The notes under the pieces were generated by a model, which was given only the letters and a program-made list of their open reading frames with translations, was not told the origin of the DNA and made no database searches. A stretch of DNA of 64,000 bases from the NCBI GenBank assembly GCA_012295275.1, contig CM022672.1, positions 20,460,001-20,524,000 of the forward strand, written 5' to 3'. This document shows, in pieces, positions 1-58,832 of the stretch (positions are counted from its first letter, which is position 1; each line of letters starts with the position of its first letter). This DNA comes from Chrysomallon squamiferum (Eukaryota > Animalia > Mollusca). The position numbers and the translations under genes are program-made.

Positions 1-10940
<10,940 letters not shown>

Positions 10941-14072: not shown

Positions 14073-14378
14073 AATCACTAAATAACAAACAACACACAGA
14101 TCAAGAGCAGTTTTTATTTCCAAGCAAATAATGTTGCTGTAAGCCGAGTTAAAAGATGTTAAAAAAACACACGATACTGCACATTTCGTACTGTTAGATA
14201 ATCGAATGGGATAGATGTTATTATTATTATTTTTGAAACGTACTCTATGATCATAATTTGAGACCAAGACCATGTTAATACAATCTCGTTATATCATACA
14301 AATACAAACATTCATAAAGGACACAGACATATTTACAAACTGAATATTAAAGATTTTTTTTTCTAGATACCTCTGGAA

Positions 14379-14505
14379 CAGTGCTTCTCATATGGATGGT
14401 ACTTGGCTTTAGTTTCGTAAATTGTTTCAATTAGTGCTACTATAAAAGTATAATGGTCCAAAACGATAATGACAAAATGGTGAGCTTGGACTCTAAGAAC
14501 CACTG
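14379..14505. mobile_element. hAT-type MITE (further copies at 26483-26609, 34996-35122, 48007-48133)
   Basis: TIRs cagtgcttctca / t(a/g)agaaccactg; 8-bp TSD ctctggaa / ctctagaa (NTCTAGAN-type target). Confidence 0.75.
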
Positions 14506-14855
14506 CTCTAGAAGATGTTAATTACCTATTACTTATTGTCTACCTAACATCTGTTTTGATGAAACGTTCAGAGAATTTTATATCAGCTGTTTAATGGCAC
14601 GCCTCTTTTATGATTTCTGGAGTAGTGCAACAATAATGAAATTTATTACACAAACAGTTCACTCGTTATAAGGACAGTCAGTTTGTAAAGAGAATTCTCT
14701 ATGAATTATTTAGCGGCACGTCTTTGTATTATTTCTGAAGAAGTTCAACAGTCATTAAAATATTTGAATCTATGTATATCATAATATCTAAATTTACTAT
14801 AATTGAAAATTCTTGATGGACCTCTGAAATATTTACTTATAATGAGGGAAAATAT

Positions 14856-16992
14856 TTACTTATTACTTGTAAAGCACTGAGGGAAAACCTTCTTGCAAGC
14901 CTCCAAGTCGTGTTCTTTCATAAAATACAGAACTGTTTCCATACTAACCCCTTCTTCTATCAAATATTTGTTTGGAAACAACGTCTGCCTATCACGGGGC
15001 AGATCCCAGTAGAAGCTAGGGTATCCTTTCAATAGCATGACACAAACATACAGAGATTTTCCGTAACGCGATACCCCTGGTGAACCAGAAGCACCTTTTT
15101 CAAATCTGCAGTGAAACCTTACAAAATTTCGATTTATAAGTCCTTCATAGCCAAAAATAGGCAAATTATTCTGTTTGCAATATCGGGTTGCACCTGCGAT
15201 TTCTTTGGGTTTTTCGTCAATCAAAGAACAATTTGGGTCACATTTTTTGTTTTCGCCTCTGTTGTGACCCACAAACGTGAAGGGCACGTCGCTTTTGATA
15301 TCACAAAACAAAACAGGCGGCGGTGGCGTCCTGTTGTCAAGATTTAGTTCAAGGACAATAACATCCAGTTGTTCCTCACTGTAGAGTACGGAATGAAAGG
15401 TGAAGATCTCTGAGGTGTTTCCAATATCTTCACTTTCAAAATTAATGTACACGTCTCGACTGTCAAATAATGGGACTGGATTCATCTGATTATCTGAATA
15501 TTAAAATAACATTATTAATACATGAACACTGGAACACTGACATATAAATGTTTATCTATGTATCCAATGTCTATCTATCTATCTTTCTATGAAGGGGAGC
15601 AAAACAAAATTTACATATTAAAAACATGAGTATTGTCATTTGTTGACCAAAACTGCTCTCTCTAGTAGTTTTCTGATAAATCTAAAATGAAAATTAGATA
15701 TCTAAAATTGCAGTCCTTGAACTCCGGTACTGAGATAGCAAAAATCGATGTCTTTAATCATTGATAATATTTAGAAAGTTTCAAAATATGGTTTCTGAAG
15801 TATTAATAGTAGCGACAATTAATTATCAGTTTAATGTTCCTGTAAATATATTTGTAGATATAAACATAATACAAATGTTTCCTCATGAAAGATCAAATAA
15901 AACTTACCAGGTAAAAATTGTTTCACAATGTGATATACAGTCATTATGTAACGATCTCCTACACGGAATCCAGTTCCAGTTCCTCTAGGGGTGGTGATTT
16001 TACCAACTGATTTACCAAAGTCGACAATCATCTTCATAAATTCCAACCCTTCAGTATTGTCAATGTCTTTCCTCAATTCTCCACCGGACGTTTTGGAAAA
16101 TCCTGTAAAATCTTTAACAGAAACGAAAACTTCACGTGCTTTCTTATTGTTTAAAAACTTTGATCCAGCAAAAAACAACTACAACCCCCCCCCAAAAAAA
16201 AAATCCCCAAACAAAACAATAACAACAAAACACAAAAAACCGCACCTCAGGACCATCAAACAAAACTCAACAAACAACCAATCAAAAGAGCAATACACTA
16301 AATACTTTTATTTGTGTGTGCGTGTTTTTGTTATTTGTTTGTTTGTTTATATAGATAGATAGATAAATAAACAGATTTACTCATCGCAAATAAAAAGCAG
16401 TAACATTTAATATTAACTGTCGTAAAATAATGTCTATGCTGATAATGAAATTAATAATAATAATAATAATAATTCTTTGAACATGATACATTTCTATTGG
16501 CAAAACTATGATGAAGATGATGTTGATGATATTAATAATGATAAAACTATGATGACAATGATGACGATGATAATAATAATTACGATTAAGATGATAATAA
16601 AATATAATATAAAATAATACAATAAAATACAGTACAATGCAATACAATATAATATAAAGATAATGATAACATAATGATAATGTTGATGAATGAAACAAAC
16701 AGTAACTGTACAAACCTGGTTCGGGTTTTGTATGTTTCATGGTTTCTGTTGCTATGTATTCCACTGTGGATCCTCTGCCAAGCTGTACAATACCAGGCCC
16801 TCCATGGCCCGTGGCTTTCACTTTCACTCCAGTGGATGATCTTTCTCTTTCAACTAAAAAATAAAAAAATAAAAAAAAAAAAAATTGAAAAAGAAAGAAA
16901 GAAAGAAAGAAAGAAAGAGTTACTACTTTATTGTCAAGTTAACAAATTCAGTCATTCGCGTCCTTCATTTTATTTATTTCATTTATTTTATC

Positions 16993-17087
<95 letters not shown>

Positions 17088-18656
17088 TTCTTCTAGGAAA
17101 TACTAATACTTTACTTTGTGTTTGCTTATTCGATGGAAATTTGTGGTCTCCTATGAATCTAATGCTGGATTCTTGTCCTAACTGAATAATGCCTCCATCC
17201 TTAGCAGTTAGATCCAAATTACCTGTAAGGCATCAAAAACAAAAATTAGTATCTATTACTTGCAGAATGACAAAAAGAATCTTTAATTCTGTCACAGAAA
17301 ACAGACGTATGTGTCTTACTTGTAGAACGTCAAAAACAAGACTTACCTCTTGCCACAGAAAACAGATATATCTGTATTACTTGTAAAATGACAAAAAGGA
17401 TACTTAACTATCGTCACAGAAAACAGACACATCTGTATTATTTGTGGAACGTCAGAAACAATAACAAACTCTTGATATACAGTAGAAAACGTTCAGACAT
17501 ATTTGTAGAGGGTCAAACAATCAAACAATCATAAAGTCTTGAATTATCATAAAAAATATCCAGAAACATCAATATTAATCGTAGAACGCCCAAAATAATA
17601 TCAACACTTGCTCTGCCACATATAGTGGTCAGAACTATATGTTCTGCTTGTAGAAAGAGAATGTTTTTATATACAAGAATAACGTAGATTTTTGTCATTT
17701 CTGAAATAAATAAAGAAATATATTAAATATAGGGGACTATCACCAAAGTGAATTATCAATAGCTGTTATTCGACAAATTGGACATTAGAAATAAATAAAA
17801 CAACATTTCGAACAATAATATACCTAGTTCATTTAATGGTACAACTAAAAGTACAGTTTAAGAGAATATATATTTCAAACACACACACGCACATACACAC
17901 GCACGCACACACACAGGAAGTTAGTTACCTGTTTCGTTCATTGTTATGTCCTCATTGGAAATTATCTCTTCTCTGTTTTCATCATCGCGAATCGATGGCA
18001 TTGTCGGGTCAGCCTTTATCATAAAGATGTGCGTGAAAAAACAACAATAATAAATCCATAATTATTTGAACTTTGAATAAAACAAGATTACTTCATATAT
18101 TTTTTTAATTCATTTTTTTGTTTTTTATTATTTTTCTTTCTTTTTTTCTTAAATTTTTGTTTGTTAAATAAATATATTGATACAGTCTACGCCTATCTTG
18201 TTGACAAACATTACAAATGAATAAACGAAGTTCAAAAATATTTTGAATGAGGATAACACACTTATACAGGTGAATATATATATATGCGTGTGTATGTATG
18301 TATGTATGTATGTATTATGTATGTATTATGTATATATGTATGTACGTATATATTTTTGTATGCAAGTGTACAGTAAATGAGCATATTTAAATATGTTCAT
18401 ATGTGTATGTGTGTGTGTTTAGATACATACAAAAATATATGTAAATAAGTAGAAATATAAAATGTGTTTAAAAGACAATGGATCGAGAAAACATATATTT
18501 ACAGATGATGATATCTGAGACTGTTGTACTTCAATGGATGACACACAATTATCGCCAGTCCTTTGTTTACCATTAACAACGGAGCGCATCTTTACCACGT
18601 GAACCTTGTTCTTGTTGTGGTCGTCGTTCTTGTGTTTTACAACAAATGTTACCCAT
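14856..18656 (-). CDS. FAM111-like trypsin-fold serine protease with MG N-terminus and two RHIM-like motifs, copy 1 (~440 aa). Exons ~18501-18656, 17929-18013, 17115-17222, 16716-16853, 15908-16111, 14856-15493; 1-bp insertion in first coding exon
   Basis: SVGKI..GTGTGFRVGDRYIMTVYH (His), LDVIVLEL (Asp), FVGH, FEKGASGSPG (Ser) and EEGVSM match the FAM111A/B protease pattern; exon phases are compatible. Confidence 0.8.
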
Positions 18657-22311: not shown

Positions 22312-25193
<2,882 letters not shown>

Positions 25194-26986: not shown

Positions 26987-31723
<4,737 letters not shown>

Positions 31724-35419: not shown

Positions 35420-39518
<4,099 letters not shown>

Positions 39519-42724: not shown

Positions 42725-43291
42725 CATGTAAAAGTGGTTACACAATGTGATGTGCAGTCATTGTGTAATGATCTTATACAAGGAAACCAGTTGCTGTTGC
42801 GACAGGGGTGATGATTTTACCAACTGGACAATCATTTTCAGAAATTGCAACTCGTCAATACACCACCGGACATTTTAGAAAATCCTCTAAAATCTGTAAC
42901 CAAAACGAAAACCTCAAATGCTTTCTTACTGTGTAAAAACTTTGACACGCAAATTTGTTTTAGAAAAACACAAACAACAACAACAAAACAACAACAAACA
43001 AACAAACAAACAAACAAAACAAACACTAAGAAGGAAACACACCTAAGAATCACCAAACAAAACCTAACAAATAACCAATCAAAAGAGCAACAAACTACAT
43101 AATTTTATTTTTGTGTTGGTGTTTTTGGTATTTTATATTTGTTTGTTTGGATAGATAGATAGATAGATAGATAGAGAGACAGATTTACCCATAGCAAATA
43201 AAAAGCAGTAACATTTAATATTAGGTGTACTGAGATATAATTAAACTTTTATTTAATCAAATTATAAAATAATGTCTATGCTGATGATGAA

Positions 43292-43339
<48 letters not shown>

Positions 43340-45604
43340 TCTTTGATCATGATATATTAATAATGATAAAACTATGATGACGAAGATAATAATAATTATT
43401 TTGATGCTGATGATGAAAATAATATAACAATGATCATATATTATTATGATGAAGATATTAATATAATATAATGCAGTACAGTACAATACAATATAATACA
43501 ATATAATATAATATAATATAATACAATATAATACAATATAATACAATATAATATAATATAATATAATATAATATAATATAATATAAAGATAATGATAGCA
43601 TAATGATAATGTTGATGAAGAAACAAACAGTAACTGTACAGACCTGGTTCGGGTTTTGTATGTTTCATGCTTTCTGTTGCTATGTATTCCACTGTGCATC
43701 CTCTGCCAAGCTGTACAATACCAGGCCCTCCATGGCCCGTGGCTTTCACTTTGACTCCAGTGGATGATCTTTCTCTTTCAACTAACAAAAAAGAAAGAAA
43801 ACAATAAAATAATAATAATAATTATAATGAAAAACATTGAAAAAAAAAAATAAAAGAAAGAAAGAAAAATAATTAATACATTTTTGACAAGTTAACAAGT
43901 TCAGTCATTCGCGTCGTTCATTTCTTCATTTTGTTTATTTCTATTATTTCTATTATTATTATTATTATTATTATTACTATTATTATTATCTTATAGGAAA
44001 TACTGATACTTCACTTTGTGTTTGCTTATTTGAGGCAAATTTGTGGTTTCCTATAAATATAATGCTTGATTTTGGTCCTAATTGAATAATGCCTCCATCC
44101 TTAGCAGTTAGATCCAGATTGCCTGTACAGCATCAAAAAAAAAAAAAAAAAAAAAAAAATATCTGTATTATGGAGAATGGAAATAAAATAAAATAATACT
44201 AATCCTGTGACAGAAAACAGACTTATGTGTCTTACTTGTAGAACGTCGAAAACATAACATCTATTGTCACAGAAAACAGATATATATGTATTACATAAAG
44301 AACGTCAAAAACAAAACTTATCTTTTTCATAGAAAAGAGATATGATATATCTGTATTGCTTGTAAAATGACAAAAAGAATACTTAACTCTAGTCACAGAA
44401 AACAGATATATCTGTATTAGTTGTGGAACGTTAGAAACAATACTAAATTATCGTATTATAGTAGAAAACGTTCAGACATATTTGTAGAAGGTCAAACAAT
44501 CAAACAATCATAAAGTTTTGAATTATTATAGAAAATATTCAGAAACATCAATATTAATCGTAGAACGTCCAAAATAATATCAACACTTGTCCTGTCACAT
44601 ATAGTGGTCAGAAATATCTGTCTTGCTTGTAGAAGGAGAATGTTTTTATACATAAGAAAAACCTTGATATTTTTCTTTTCTGAAATGGATAAAGAAATAT
44701 ATTAAATATAGGGGACTATCACCAGAGTGAATTATCAATTGTTGTTACGATAAAAACTGGACATTAGAAATAAATACAACAACTTTTCGAACAATAATAT
44801 ACCTAGTTCATTTAATGGTACAACTAAAAGTACAGTTTAAGAGAATATATATTTCAAACACACACACGCACATGCTCACGCACGCACACACACACAGAGG
44901 GACTTAGTTACCTGTTTCGTTCATTGTTATGTCCTGATTGGAAATTATCTCTTCTCTGTTTACATCATCGCGAATCGATGGCATTGTCGGGTCAGCCTTT
45001 ATCATAAAGATGTGCGTGAAAAAACAACAATAATAAATCCATAATTATTTGAACTTTGAAGAAAACAAGATTATTTCATATATTTTTTAATTCATTTTTT
45101 TGTTTTTCATTTTTATTTTTATTTTTTTGTTAAATAAATATATTGATACAGTCTACGCCTATCTTGTTGACAAACATTAGAAACGAATAACTGAACTTCA
45201 AAACTATTTTGAATGAAGATAACACACACATACATTTGAATATGTGTATGTATATACGTTTGTATATATGTATTTTTTATTTGTTTAGGTATGTATATAT
45301 GTATGTATACAAGTATGTAGTATATGAGCATATTTAAATATGTTCATGAGTGTATGTGTGTGTGTATTTAGATACATACAAAAATATATGTAACTAAGTA
45401 GAAATATAAAATGTGTTTAAAAGGCAATGGATCGAGAACGCGTATATTTACAGGAGATGATACTTTAGGCTGTTGTACTTCACTGGATGACACATAATTA
45501 TCGCTAGTCGTTTGTTTATCATTAAAGACGAGCTCATCTTTACCACGTGGATGTTTTTCTTGCTGTGGTCGTTGTGTTTGTGTTTTACAACAAATGTTAC
45601 CCAT
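42725..45604 (-). pseudogene. FAM111-like copy 5: open N-terminal exons (45452-45604, 44912-44996, 44015-44122, 43644-43781); His exon (42725-42893) broken; catalytic exon missing
   Basis: MGNICCK start, IQLG and VQLG motifs, early TGA at 42838; only a short stub resembling the last exon's end remains at ~42220-42278. Confidence 0.8.
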
Positions 45605-48429: not shown

Positions 48430-49892
48430 CTAATTGAAAATTCTTGATGGATCTCTGAAATATTTCCCGTAACGCGATACCCCTGGTGAATCAGAAGCAC
48501 CTTTTTCAAATGTGCAGTGAAACCTTACAAAATTTGGATTTCGAAGTCCTTCATGGCCAGAAGTGGGGAATTTATTCCTGATGCAGAATTGGGATGCCTT
48601 TTCAACCGTTTCGTTTGTTAGATCAATTACTAAGCAATTTGTGTTACGTTTTTTGTTTTCGCCTCTGTCGTGACCCACAAACGTGAAGGGCACGTCGCTT
48701 TTGACATCACAAAACAAAACAGGCGGTGGTGGCGTCCTGTTTTAAGATTTCGCTCAAGAACAATAACATCCAGTTGTTTCTCTCTGTAGAGTACGGAATG
48801 AAAGGTGAATATCAGTTACGTGTTTCCAGTATTTTCACTTTCAAAACTGATCTAAATTCATCGGATTATCTGAATAATGAAATAATATAACAGAATTATT
48901 GGTACATGAACACTGCCATCCATACCTAACTATTTCGCTATATACATAAACAGTTATCTATTTAAGCGTTATCTATGCATATATCTATTTATGTGTCTCT
49001 CCATAACAAGTGAGAAAATAGTCCTCACTGATGTTTAACACGTTACACCTCAAACAAATAAAAAAAAAAAAAAAAAAAAAAAAAATTAACAGAAATATGG
49101 ATATTGTCCGTTATCAATCAAAATTGTTATCTCCAATATTTTTTAGATAAAGCCAAAATCAAAATTAGATATAGAAAATTGCAATTCTGGAAATCCATGT
49201 GAGTGATTGCAAATATCAATTTTTTATTTGTGGTTTCAAGATATTAAGTGTTAACAATCAGTAAAGTTGTATATTTTGGGTGTATGTGTTTTGGTGTATG
49301 TGTTTTTTTCCCACCGGATATATGCATTTCAATTTATCAATTTCAATATAAATAATACAAAGCAGGACTAAAAGGAGCGACAATTAATTATCAGTTTAAT
49401 GTTCCTGAAAATATATTTGCAGATATAAACATAATACAAATGTTTCCTCATGAAAGACCAAATAAAACTTACCATGTAAAAATGGTTTCACAATGTGATG
49501 TGCAGTCATTATGTAATGATCTTATACAAGGAAACCAGTTGCTGTTGCGAGAGGGGTGATGATTTTACCAACTGGACAATCATTTTCAGAAATTCCAACT
49601 CCTCGATACGCCACCGGACATTTTAGAAAATCCTCTAAAATCTGTAACCAAAACAAAAACCTCAAGTGCTTTCTTACTGTGTAAAAACTTTGACACGCAA
49701 ATTTTTTTTTAGAAAAACACAAACAACAACAACAAAACAACAACAAACAAACAAACAAACAAAACAAACACTAAGAAGGAAACACACCTAAAAATCACCA
49801 AACAAAACCTAACAAATAACCAATCAAAAGAGCAACAAACTACATAATTTTATTTTTGTGTTTGTGTTTTTGGTATTTTATATTTGTTTGTT

Positions 49893-49948
<56 letters not shown>

Positions 49949-50607
49949 CAGATTTACCCGTAGCAAATAAAAAGCAGTAACATTTAATATTAGGTGTACT
50001 GAGATATAATTAAACTTTTATTTAATCAAATTATAAAATAATGTCTATGCTGATGATGAAATTAATAATAATAATAATAATAATAATAATTCTTTGATCA
50101 TGATATATTAATAATGATAAAACTATGATGACGAAGATAATAATAATTATTTTGATGCTGATGATGAAAATAATAATAACAATGATCATATATTATTATG
50201 ATGAAGATATTAATATAATATAATGCAGTACAGTACAATACAATACAATACAATATAATATAATACAATACAATATAATATAATATAATATAATATAATA
50301 TAATACAATATAATACAGTATAATATAATATAATATAATATAATATAAATAATATAATATAAAGATAATGATGATAATGTTGACGAGGAAACAAACAGTA
50401 ACTGTACAGACCTGGTTCGGGTTTTGTATGTTTCATGCTTTCTGTGGCTATGTATTCCACTGTGCATCCTCTGCCAAACTGTACAATACCAGGCCCTCCA
50501 TGGCCCGTGGCTTTCACTTTGACTCCAGTGGATGATCTTTCTTTTTCAACTAACAAAAAAGAAAGAAAACAATAAAATAATAATAATAATTATAATGAAA
50601 AAAATTG

Positions 50608-50644
<37 letters not shown>

Positions 50645-50707
50645 CTTTTTTGACAAGTTAACAAGTTCAGTCATTCGCGTCGTTCATTTCTTCATTTTGT
50701 TTATTTC

Positions 50708-50779
<72 letters not shown>

Positions 50780-52409
50780 CTTATAGCAAATACTGATACT
50801 TCACTTTGCGTTTGTTTATTTGAGGCAAATTTGTGGTTTCCTATAAATATAATGCTTGATTTTGGTCCTAACTGAATAATGCCTCCATCCTTAGTAGTTA
50901 GATCCAGATTGCCTGTACAGCATAAAAAAAAAAAAAAAAAAAAAATTAATATCTGTATTACTTGCAGAATGGAAATAAAATAAAATAATACTAATCCTGT
51001 GACAGAAAACAGACTTATGTGTCTTACTTGTAGAACGTCGAAAACAAAACATCTATTGTCACAGAAAACAGATATATATATATGTATTACATATAGAACG
51101 TCAAAAACAAAACTTACCTTTTTCATAGAAAAGAGATATGATATATCTGTATTGCTTGTAAAATGACAAAAAGAATACTTAACTCTAGTCACAGAAAACA
51201 GATATATCTGTATTATTTGTGGAACGTTAGAAATAATAATAAATTCTCGTATTATAGTAGAAAACGTTCAGACATATTTGTAGAAGGTCAAACAATCAAA
51301 CAATCATAAAGTTTTGAATTATTATAGAAAATATTCAGAAACATCAATATTAATCGTAGAACGTCCAAAATAATATCAACACTTGTCCTGTCACATATAG
51401 TGGTCAGAAATATTTGTCTTGCTTGTAGAAGGAGAATGTTTTTATACATAAGAAAAACCTTGATATTTTTCTTTTCTGAAATGGATAAAGAAATATATTA
51501 AATATAGGGGACTATCACCAGAGCGAATTATCAATTGTTGTTACGATAAAAAGTGGATATTAGAAATAAATACAACAACATTTCGAACAATAATATACCT
51601 AGTTCATTTAATGGTACAACTAAAAGTACAGTTTAAGAGAATATATATTTCAAACACACACACGCACATGCTCACGCACGCACACACACACACAGGGACT
51701 TAGTTACCTGTTTCGTTCATTGTTATGTCCTGATTGGAAATTATCTCTTCTCTGTTTACATCATCGCGAATCGATGGCATTGTCGGGTCAGCCTTTATCA
51801 TAAAGGTGTGCGTGAAAAAACAACAATAATAAATCCATAATTATTTGAACTTTGAAGAAAAAAAGATTATTTCATATATTTTTTAATTCATTTTTTTTGT
51901 TTTTCATTTTTATTTTTATTTTTTTGTTAAATAAATATATTGATATACTCTGCGCCTATCTTGTTGACAAACATTAGAAACGAATAACTCAACTTCAAAA
52001 CTATTTTGAATGAAGATAACACACACATACATTTGAATATGTATATATGTGTATGTATATACGTTTGTATATATGTATTTTTTATTTTTTTAGGTATGTA
52101 TATATGTATGTATACAAGTATGTAGTATATGAGCATATTTAAATATGTTTATATGTGTATGTGTGGGTGTATTTAGATACATACAAAAATATATGTAACT
52201 AAGTAGAAATATAAAATGTGTTTAAAAGGCAATGGATCGAGAACACGTATATTTACAGGAGATGATATTTCAGGCTGTTGTACTTCACTGGATGACACAT
52301 AATTATCGGAAGTCCTTTGTTTATCATTAAAGACGAGCTCATCTTTACCACGTGGATGTTTTTCTTGCTGTGGTCGTTGTGTTTGTGTTTTACAACAAAT
52401 GTTACCCAT
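48430..52409 (-). pseudogene. FAM111-like copy 6: open N-terminal exons (52257-52409, 51708-51792, 50805-50912, 50412-50549); protease exons (49473-49641, 48430-48869) disrupted
   Basis: Same early stop and 3' deletion as copy 4; GASDSP; RHIM-like cores IQLG and VQFG. Confidence 0.8.
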
Positions 52410-55604: not shown

Positions 55605-56834
55605 CTATACGACGAAGGGGTCCACCAAATTATTTCTAACAGCCGAATACATTCCTATATGTTCAAAAACATTAGGCTGTACCATCAGCGCTACTAGTTT
55701 TTCTCGTTTACGAATTTCATCAAGAGCTGTATCTTTTGCGAATGAACTTTTGCACCGCATCTTGTCTAAATGATTAACTATCAATCTCCCGCCATTTCTT
55801 GTGTACAATATGGCCGGCGTACAACACGATGGAGCAGGGGTGACTTCGTAAAGATGTGCGGAAAGACGCCGGAGTTCAAGAAGATTCTGTCTTCCAACAG
55901 AAAGACCAACTAGGCAACAAAACAGCGTGCACGTCAGCCATACTATTTTGACTTTCTTCTGCTTCCACTCAACAATAAAATGCATATAAAACAGAAAAAG
56001 CATTGTTCCGAAAACGAGACTAACACCAATAAGTTCAGGTATGCGTTCAACTTCTAAACTAACGTATCCTAGCAAGCGACCAGGGTGATAAAATTTCACG
56101 TACGCCACATTCCGGTACCGTAAGTGAGACTCAGATGTTGCATGTCGCTTGTCGAGGTGTTTTCTGATAACGTGTTCAAGAACGGGTATCAGCTGCCTGT
56201 GTGGGTACGCATCGTCTTCAACAAGAAGCACGTACAATGGATTCAGCTTCAAAGTTTCATTTAAACAAAACACATAATCCTTCTTCTCCTTTTCAAAGAC
56301 ATCGCTCGGCGGTTTCGTGATTTTCGAATAGAGCTCAAACTTTGGAATGGCAATCGGCAAGGATTTAATTTCTTTGTGGCGGTCTGGATTGCTGTCAACG
56401 TTGCAAATGAAGAGGCCATATCTCTTTGTTGCCGCAGAGGAGTTCAATATGTGCAAGAAACGTCCAACCACCTGAGTCAGATAATCTGTTTCGTAATGTT
56501 GTTTCTGGTCGCGACGTCTCGAAACTGTGATGATGGTGATTCCAATGTCAAACTGTTGTAGTTTTAGTATTTTACTGTTGTTTAACCATTGTGACGTTCT
56601 GTTGTAGTCGGAGAGAAATTGCCTGTTTTCTGCGAGACGAATTTTGTTAATATTTATCAGTCGTGATTCTTCTCGTGTTTTATTAATCTGCCACATGGAG
56701 TAAACCGAGTATCTCATGCCAGTGCAGATCAGGGGTAAGATGATGCCGAACGTACACACAGAGACAAGTATCGTGTGTCTGAAAAGCTGATCTGCACATA
56801 TCCATCTAAAGCCGTTTTTCTTATTCAAGATCAT
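55605..56834 (-). CDS. PGAP4: PGAP4/TMEM246 GPI GalNAc transferase, 409 aa, single coding exon
   Basis: N-terminal TM, GITIITVSR, FEKEKKDYVFCL, YVLLVEDDA, YVKFYHP, two internal TMs, CCTPA, AKD and HIGMYS motifs; acceptor at ~56845 indicates an upstream exon. Confidence 0.92.
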   Translation of the reverse strand: MILNKKNGFRWICADQLFRHTILVSVCTFGIILPLICTGMRYSVYSMWQINKTREESRLININKIRLAENRQFLSDYNRTSQWLNNSKILKLQQFDIGITIITVSRRRDQKQHYETDYLTQVVGRFLHILNSSAATKRYGLFICNVDSNPDRHKEIKSLPIAIPKFELYSKITKPPSDVFEKEKKDYVFCLNETLKLNPLYVLLVEDDAYPHRQLIPVLEHVIRKHLDKRHATSESHLRYRNVAYVKFYHPGRLLGYVSLEVERIPELIGVSLVFGTMLFLFYMHFIVEWKQKKVKIVWLTCTLFCCLVGLSVGRQNLLELRRLSAHLYEVTPAPSCCTPAILYTRNGGRLIVNHLDKMRCKSSFAKDTALDEIRKREKLVALMVQPNVFEHIGMYSAVRNNLVDPFVV

Positions 56835-58832
56835 GATCCATCACCTGTAAATATATAAATGTAAAATCCAACAGCTGTACGATAATATTGCTTACATTTT
56901 TAAAAATATTTAGTCTTTATTTTCTAATTCTTTTTTAAAAAGAAGAAAATAATTAATTGATTAACACATAACAACAGCTGTAGCAGCAACACCGTAAGGA
57001 GAAAAACAAAAAGCAAAAACTTACCACGTTGCACTATATTACATACTTCACATGGAAATAATATACTTGTTTCACAGTCCCCTTTGTAACATAAGATTTA
57101 AACAGTCGGGTGTATTTTTGTAACATTTCATTTAGAACTGATATTATGAAGTAAAGTTTTATTGCTTTATTTATTTTATTGTTAATAGGCTATGTATTTG
57201 GTTATCTATTTATAATCAGGAAGAAAATAATATAAGGTAAAGTAAACTGTTTATGGTAACTAAAGTGATTCTGTTCGATTAAAAAGAAGTATTAAACAAA
57301 CAAACCAAAAATTATATGTAGTGCACTTTTCTTAACTCACAAATATAACTGCAAATTCTATTCATTCCTACTCTCAAGATGGTTTATTTAACTTTTTTTT
57401 CTGTCACCAATTTTAATACTTTCATAAAAATCACTTTCCAAATTCTTCATCTTTAACCTCCCCAAGTAACTTTTCTGTTTTACCGATATGTAGTATTTAT
57501 GTTATTAAGAAAGAAAACATTATACACGGTGGTTATTCATAATCCAAAATGGAAAATGATCAGTATCAAACGCTATATAATTTCCAACCTTTCAGTTCGA
57601 AGAACTCGGGAACACAGAGAAATCATTACTCTGAACATACAAATGTATGGGGTTACGTGTCGGCACCATTTTTAAAAGACACTACTTACGGATCATCGTG
57701 AATTTGTACAGCTTTAAAACTTGCCACAGCGTTGTTATAGATCTGTAGACTAGCACGGTAATCCCAGGGCCAATGTGTGACCCTCGGCTTTCAAAACTCG
57801 AGTGTTTCTTCCTCACTGACATAACTGATAATTCTATGAAGTGAGCATCCACACTTCCGCTCTCATCCGCGAAACACGTGAAAGAGAAAGCATGACGCTT
57901 GCGCAGTGATACCAACCTTCGAGCGACAGTTTTTGCCATGTGCCAGATATAATCGATCCATGTAAATGTTTCAAGTAACTGTATCTGATGGTTTCCAGGT
58001 CAGAGAAAAGACCCCAACTAGCATCGTACACGATTTGCGAGACATCTAGGCCATATAAATATAGAGTATGTTTAAAGATAAACAGAGATAAGCAGCAAAA
58101 CTGGTTACACGTCTTTTTGTTCCTGCAGCTAGTAAACTACCTGTTAAGTAATGTCAACTTGGTATCCAGCGTTTCAAGGGATTAATTAACTGAACTGGGG
58201 GTGCTACGTAACTGTTGTTTTATTGTGATGTAATGGATGATATAGTTATTAGAATTATATTATTATGATATAACTGATAATACAATTATCAGAACTATAA
58301 CATCATCACATAATTTTAATAATGATAACCTAACGTAATTCGTTCATACACACACGCGTTCATAAACTTTGCTGTATGTTGTCTAATATTCTACAGTGAA
58401 TGAAATAAGGACTTCATACACCTTTTTTTTGTTTGTTGTTAATATTCTTTTACAAGTAGTTGTAGTAGCAATAGTAGCTGTAGTAGAAGTATAGAGGTAG
58501 GAGTAGTAGTAGTAGCAGTAGAAGTAGTAACAATGATAGTAATGATAATGGTAGCAATAGTAATAGAAGTAATAGCAGTAGTAGCAGCAACAATTATTGT
58601 AGTAATAGTAGTATTATTATGCCATATTTTTATACCATATTAACACTTTCTGTACCCTATTACTACACTAGGTGTAGTAGGTGTAGTAATGATGATGGTG
58701 GTAAAGACATCATTCTTTAATTACGTGTATTAAACTGTGAAATCGGCGTAAAAGATCTAAAATGTCTGCCCGCATTTTTTGTTGTTTTTTAGTTTTGTTT
58801 TGTTTGTTTGTTTTATTAATATTTACTAGTTG

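Follow-up and report, generated by a model that had tools for sequence, protein, structure and literature searches.

Two RHIM-like repeats ahead of a FAM111-type serine protease domain in a transcribed gene of Chrysomallon squamiferum

Introduction

Initiator caspases such as caspase-8 are proteases activated by induced dimerisation. The human protease FAM111A guards replication forks (PMC9798293) and needs dimerisation through its alpha-1 helix for substrate cleavage, but not for autocleavage (PMC10920703). Its orthologues in coral and lancelet are described as devoid of ubiquitin-like domains (UBLs), and host defence was possibly the first job of FAM111, with the replication-fork role coming later (PMC9798293). 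RHIMs occupy the place usually taken by a death-fold domain, often in tandem within unfolded linkers, and have an Asn-x-apolar tail (PMC4262963); the RIPK proteins carry an aliphatic tetrad at positions −8, −6, 0 and +2 (bioRxiv 10.64898/2026.02.19.706818). A bivalve-type gene predicted to join CARD and RHIM has been described in an iridovirus of bivalves (PMC12452177). In other systems a short amyloid motif relays the signal to a death effector (HET-S/NWD2, PP motif) and proteases serve as immune effectors (PMC12881547, PMC10197012).

An architecture joining RHIM and FAM111 was not found in the literature searched; figures, supplements and subscription journals could list one. Searches for FAM111A in oyster returned no literature and those combining FAM111 with mollusc returned other topics only. 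The string “mollus” is absent from the main text of PMC9798293, “protease” and “peptidase” are absent from that of PMC4262963, whose supplements could list such architectures, and “FAM111” and “RHIM” are absent from the main text of PMC8195603, whose source data could list them. The accessible parts of PMC12881547 and PMC10197012 do not describe a FAM111-type enzyme for the fungal amyloid and gasdermin systems.

The window analysed here is a stretch of 64,000 nucleotides of the Chrysomallon squamiferum genome (GenBank assembly GCA_012295275.1, contig CM022672.1, forward-strand positions 20,460,001 to 20,524,000). It holds six tandem copies, A to F, of a FAM111-type protease gene, and every copy is damaged as assembled. 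A sequence-only reading had described copy A as a FAM111-like protease with a myristoylation-type N-terminus and two RHIM-like amyloid motifs. We consider it evenly balanced whether its product is a clustering-activated intracellular immune protease that uses a RHIM-type amyloid as clustering device.

Structure and Transcription of Copy A

Copy A is encoded by the minus strand and has six coding exons, all bounded by GT-AG. Exon 1 (18503..18656), whose 3′ end is matched by a loose end of RNA, starts with Met-Gly-Asn followed by Cys5/Cys6/Lys7. We take Gly2 and these three residues to be of the myristoylation plus palmitoylation type. Exon 2 (17929..18013), present in RNA contigs, codes an acidic linker. 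Exons 3 (17115..17222; 108 nt) and 4 (16716..16853; 138 nt), both in phase 1-1, encode RHIM-like repeats 1 and 2, respectively. Exon 5 (15908..16111) codes the segment that matches the alpha-1 dimer helix of FAM111A and the first protease strands, including the catalytic His (15932-15930). The remainder of the trypsin-fold domain, with the catalytic Asp (15365-15363), the catalytic Ser (15089-15087) and the stop codon, is found in exon 6 (14856..15493). A single open frame runs through exons 2–6 and spans both Q-L-G cores and the intact His/Asp/Ser triad; the exons, cores and triad all lie where the sequence-only reading had placed them.

The RNA compared consists of contigs from four RNA runs of one study (five public runs in all contain the stretch), and the comparison covers window positions 14200-18200. 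Four of the five exon joints are well supported and one weakly. Joints 15908/15493 and 16716/16111 are present in the contigs, joint 17929/17222 is spanned by contigs of runs X1 and X4, and X1 RNA has at 18013 a 30-letter loose end with the same letters as the terminal part of exon 1. The first donor lies after 18503 instead of the 18501 proposed earlier. The weak case is joint 17115/16853, for which an 11-letter RNA loose end fits the start of exon 4 with one mismatch. The GT-AG introns are absent from the RNA contigs, which therefore represent mature RNA. Copy A is a real, spliced and transcribed gene for a FAM111-type protease.

Exon 1 of copy A measures 154 nt, one more than in copies C, D, E and F (153 nt each), and the extra base lies inside a two-base run at 18581-18582. 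As a consequence, the frame of Gly2 stops at 18575-18573, after 27 codons. The Met-Gly-Asn start expected from splicing is thus present in exon 1 but out of frame, and the residues ICC/FFR that had been read behind it were a mixture of copies A and C. The sole open option as assembled is an inner in-frame ATG at 18589, which gives a 419-residue product without the anchor. This one-base change is the single lesion of copy A. As assembled, copy A represents either an allele with a frameshift or a slip of the assembly, and the working product is likely made from an allele that lacks the extra base.

The Six-Copy Tandem Array

The five other copies are also encoded by the minus strand. Copy B (22312..25193) is reduced to exons 2, 5 and 6, with frameshifts in the latter two and exons 1, 3 and 4 unmatched. 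Copy C (26987..31723) has exon 1 in frame and open protease exons, and has lost the exon-2 donor. Exons 1–4 are open in copy D (35420..39518), whose exons 5 and 6 both have deletions that shift the frame. They are present in copy E (42725..45604), with exon 5 frameshifted and exon 6 unmatched, and in copy F (48462..52409), where exons 5 and 6 are frameshifted. A partial duplicate of exon 1 that has lost its start codon is found at 39075-39143, within intron 1 of copy D.

The deletions common to D, E and F make a sequencing error unlikely for those lesions. Several of the 30 RNA variant sites compared match no window copy, and record 9 of X2 RNA has exon 5 letters of D/F type without the D/E/F deletion, spliced to an exon 6 without gaps. 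Transcripts are therefore made from alleles or copies that lack the D/E/F lesions. The tandem family turns over fast, through birth and death of its copies. This state of the locus could also mean a decaying array of transcribed pseudogenes, with the architecture functional in an ancestor or intact elsewhere and no active anchored protease here. Such a decay would agree with the lesions seen in all six copies as assembled and with the deletions shared by three of them, but we consider it improbable given the one-base lesion of copy A in a two-base run, its open exons 2–6 and the transcription of alleles without the D/E/F lesions.

A short Pro/aromatic/acidic motif was observed in exon 2 of copies B (25109-25193), C (30686-30770) and D (38875-38959) and at residues 83-98 of P0001, the nearest relative (see below). 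Its match to P0001 was reached by 21, 88 and 82 of 2000 shuffles for the three copies. P0026 and P0031 have a similar motif, and that of copy A is degraded; it may be a docking motif.

Other open reading frames accompany the array. Tandem small Cys-rich modules with a CC/C...CN ending, followed by long Asn/Gly/Lys-rich tails, are encoded by the minus strand at 3243-10940. They are presumably three-finger modules of the Ly6/quiver-like type; three ORFs of this array had no match in Pfam. On the plus strand, a single 411-residue ORF (55605-56840) has only a weak Pfam match to DUF7860 and is presumably a PGAP4/TMEM246-like membrane glycosyltransferase. The window has no gene recognised as coding an NLR or a gasdermin.

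The Protease Domain and Its Kinship to FAM111

Exon 6 alone matches Pfam Trypsin_2 with E 4.4e-5, below the cut-off and over part of the domain, and has no match in the PDB. Word-index homologue searches with this exon returned no relatives. A full HMMER scan identified 154 at E ≤ 0.001, the best being 36% identical. Sixteen of the 20 relatives looked up have named records (one via a cluster member). They are all molluscs (Haliotis, Potamilus, Argopecten, Mizuhopecten, Mercenaria, Mya, Ostrea, Pinctada, Saccostrea, Mytilus, Dreissena) plus one brachiopod (Lingula), and their labels read uncharacterised, hypothetical, “serine protease” or the name of a domain. The family profile, built from 41 rows of which two come from the window and one is a duplicate, has FAM111A as top PDB match over the whole domain including alpha-1 (E 1.4e-29; next match 1.6e-5). 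FAM111A is also the first match of the predicted structure of relative P0029 (Foldseek E 1.5e-15). The segment corresponding to alpha-1 aligns in the family profile and is helical in the models of two relatives. The FAM111-like assignment is borne out by the profile and the fold match, to which the partial Trypsin_2 match of exon 6 adds. The nearest relative, P0001 of Haliotis asinina, is devoid of the catalytic His and no motif was detected in it. It may be an anchored pseudo-protease or decoy.

Copy A shares with human FAM111A and FAM111B (PDB 8S9K, 8S9L) the Trypsin_2-type fold, the triad, the N-terminal alpha-1 segment and the lack of a signal peptide. It differs by a gene model without ubiquitin-like domains or PIP box, which has instead the Gly2 anchor consensus and the two RHIM-like repeats. 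The N-terminal exons are short; exons 3 and 4 have no match in Pfam, and the two ubiquitin-like domains of the vertebrate proteins were not found.

The RHIM-Like Repeats

Repeat 1 (17217-17152, minus strand) has the core IQLG at 17187-17176 and repeat 2 (16827-16753, minus strand) the core VQLG at 16788-16777. Both cores conform to the (V/I)-Q-(V/I/L/C)-G sequence of mammalian RHIMs, position +8 is apolar in each repeat, and an apolar-x-apolar strand precedes the core. Two core-plus-tail matches within 125 residues were reached by none of 1000 shuffles. The score of 43 of the exon 3 to exon 4 alignment was reached by none of 10,000, and the likeness of the two homologous exons together with their common nature of phase 1-1 cassettes suggests exon duplication. 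In other copies the core is less well kept: the core Leu of repeat 1 is replaced by the polar Ser in copy C, and repeat 2 of copy F has a Phe in its core.

The likeness to RIPK1, RIPK3, ZBP1, TRIF, the invertebrate RHIMs and the cryptic RHIMs of Imd and PGRP-LC lies in the core, the apolar +8 residue and the tandem arrangement in an unfolded linker. The copy A repeats differ from those of RHIM proteins in the register of the first strand, the residue at the conserved Asn and the absence of a Pfam RHIM match; the attached effector is a protease, not a kinase or an adaptor. Measured against the RIPK register, the upstream strand is displaced outward by 2 and 5 residues. None of the nine exon copies in the window has the exact aliphatic-tetrad register, and six of the nine fit it with a longer loop. 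The position of the conserved Asn is occupied by Ser or Cys in the window repeats, which keep the apolar tail residue. Pfam lists no RHIM match for exons 3 and 4, in scans whose HMMER filters drop weak matches, and neither exon matched a RHIM or HET-s fibril in the PDB. Such fibrils are also absent from the 43 PDB matches of the whole-family profile, and the ESM Atlas gave no usable feature match. Exon 4 matched “Pizza” propellers, which are designed proteins, in the PDB; these matches are sums of 4.5-bit repeats and were rejected. We do not class the repeats as RHIMs, but they likely act like RHIMs.

Among the relatives we considered the 54 with at least 90 residues ahead of the detected protease start (N-extended relatives). 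Three overlapping Pfam scans of relatives in general (30, 32 and 12 proteins) have no RHIM among the matches listed. The strict Gln core is found in 2 of the 54 and is not enriched, so that one of the outcomes named beforehand in the sequence-only reading as speaking against it, a lack of conservation of the QLG motifs in homologues from other species, is partly borne out. A looser pattern, apolar-x-apolar-Gly-x-x-[NSG]-x-apolar, picked like all motif patterns here after the sequences were seen, occurs in the N-terminal parts of three of the 22 relatives of anchor type (0.3 expected; reached by 1 of 1000 shuffles) and of 5 of the 32 others (2.2 expected), and in 2 of the 54 protease domains used as control (4.4 expected). 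When an apolar residue at −6 is also demanded (five register positions plus the tail), 5 of 54 relatives conform versus 0.8 expected (0 of 300 shuffles). The full aliphatic-tetrad register of the RIPK proteins is found in P0113 and P0128, with P0128 (residues 455-476) having the best register among the relatives, and Asn is present at the RHIM tail position in 4 of the 54.

Among the best local matches of exon 3 are motif islands from P0017, P0005 and P0024, the three proteins that come next to P0001 as nearest neighbours in the tree. At p ≤ 0.05, exon 3 has four matches to the 54 relatives, exon 4 two and the control exon 2 also two. An HMM of hand-picked cores of the relatives, one wrong row included, missed the window repeats; no profile link was found between the repeats and the relatives' motifs. 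Motif columns were not consistently better conserved than their flanks in 11 related pairs. On a protease tree of the 54 relatives plus copies A and C, in which we assigned the motif label, motif-labelled proteins require seven changes, at least five of them forced by well-supported branches. The motif feature is thus old or recurrent. Four of 22 relatives have p < 0.05 in a beta-island test (Fisher p 1e-5, for sequences that are related), and the score of the window is unremarkable (p = 0.49). The motif region of P0128 retrieved solely its own isoform and a Saccostrea orthologue, and no partner. In the AlphaFold models of P0029 and P0046 the motif regions are unstructured, with pLDDT under 50, which is no evidence either way. 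A Gibbs motif search (326, versus 295–311 for six shuffles) was rejected since it had locked onto one subfamily. P0156 (Mizuhopecten isoform X3) has 171 residues, keeps the motif and ends after the catalytic His; it is possibly a natural dominant-negative form.

RHIM amyloid is plausible. The RHIM-like pattern is enriched in relatives, and the negative findings, among them the lack of a Pfam RHIM match and of Gln core enrichment, count for as much. The same protein could be an immune protease of FAM111 type anchored at a membrane, with repeats that are short beta-strand motifs of an ordinary kind. These would bind a partner or a substrate, or serve autoinhibition and autocleavage, and membrane crowding alone would activate the enzyme. 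The missing profile match, the heterogeneity of the relatives' motifs and the unremarkable beta-island score would all be expected from such motifs. They leave unexplained why both repeats combine a Gly-terminated core with an apolar +8 residue, in tandem in a charged linker, and why P0113 and P0128 have the full RHIM register; we regard this non-amyloid role as rather unlikely.

N-Termini and Domain Fusions of the Relatives

The myristoylation consensus comprises Gly2, a small residue 6 and Lys7. A Met-Gly start is found in 18 of the 54 N-extended relatives; among these, Ser6 is present in 12, Lys7 in 15, and a Cys within positions 3-8 in 14. Within the window the consensus is present in copies A (out of frame), E and F, while copies C and D have Arg6. 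The Met-Gly relatives would, by this consensus, be of the myristoylation plus palmitoylation type. A myristoylation-type N-terminus is supported for the family; in copy A as assembled it is out of frame.

Pfam domain scans covered 62 of the 150 listed relatives, which are predicted proteins, so that some fusions may be gene-model errors. Above the Pfam cut-off, P0136 (Haliotis rufescens) has two DEDs followed by the FAM111-type protease, P0132 (Lingula) a CARD and a kinase with the same C-terminal protease, and P0145 (Dreissena) three TNFR repeats, ending in the same protease. Also above the cut-off are Death domains (P0054, P0058, P0065), Roc or COR (P0013, P0082, P0137, P0142, P0146), HEPN_DZIP3 (P0075, P0097), OTU (P0113) and a B-box (P0137). 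TIR (P0059) and Rel-homology (P0073) matches are below it. P0128 (Ostrea) is a receptor-like Ig protein with the RHIM-register motif and the same protease at its end. Note that the layout of P0136 resembles that of caspase-8 but with a serine protease. This set of fusions is as expected for a proximity-activated immune effector, and the immune or cell-death role proposed for copy A gains indirect support from the relatives with DED, CARD, TNFR and Death domains.

A housekeeping role of the FAM111-like protease at DNA-protein crosslinks or in proteostasis, without immune function, would follow the example of the human enzyme at replication forks (PMC9798293). It is hard to reconcile with a gene model free of ubiquitin-like domains, the membrane-anchor consensus, the rapid birth and death of copies and the fusion of relatives to DED, CARD, TNFR and Death domains, and is in our opinion very improbable.

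A Candidate Amyloid-Switched Protease

The preferred clustering-activated protease has parallels in two described groups. With initiator caspases such as caspase-8 it would share the principle of a protease switched on by induced dimerisation, and relative P0136 has two DEDs ahead of its protease. Copy A codes a trypsin-fold serine protease, unlike caspase-8, and its proposed clustering is of amyloid rather than death-fold type. With the fungal amyloid-controlled effectors (HET-S/NWD2, PP motif) and the gasdermin-activating proteases HET-Q2 and CHAT it would share the path from amyloid motif to death effector and the use of proteases as immune effectors; the protease clans are different.

We infer lipidation, amyloid formation, activation and an immune role for the product of copy A, in the following order. 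Myristoylation of Gly2 and palmitoylation of Cys, as suggested by the consensus, would pin the protein to the membrane. A charged linker, with disorder predicted for the relatives, would present the two repeats, and an upstream sensor or adaptor bearing a RHIM could template them into a cross-beta stack. Crowding may then dimerise the protease via the alpha-1 helix and order the active site, as shown for human FAM111A. The enzyme would cleave a protein of the pathogen, or one of the host that acts in death or signalling. Neither a sensor nor a substrate of the copy A protease was found.

On a wider scale, molluscs and brachiopods may possess a second branch of innate immunity, comparable to that of the caspases, in which the FAM111-type domain is combined with DED, CARD-kinase, TNF-receptor, Death, Roc-COR and RHIM-type amyloid modules, copy A being its amyloid-switched membrane-anchored form; we hold this tentatively, at somewhat less than even confidence. 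The idea that host defence came first for FAM111 is made testable by invertebrate relatives that carry immune clustering modules, not ubiquitin-like domains. If the proposal is true, a protease would be added to the effectors placed under animal RHIM-type amyloids, and an animal protease would be switched on directly by a signalling amyloid. It would also suggest that farmed oysters, mussels, scallops and abalone have an unstudied family of defence proteins.
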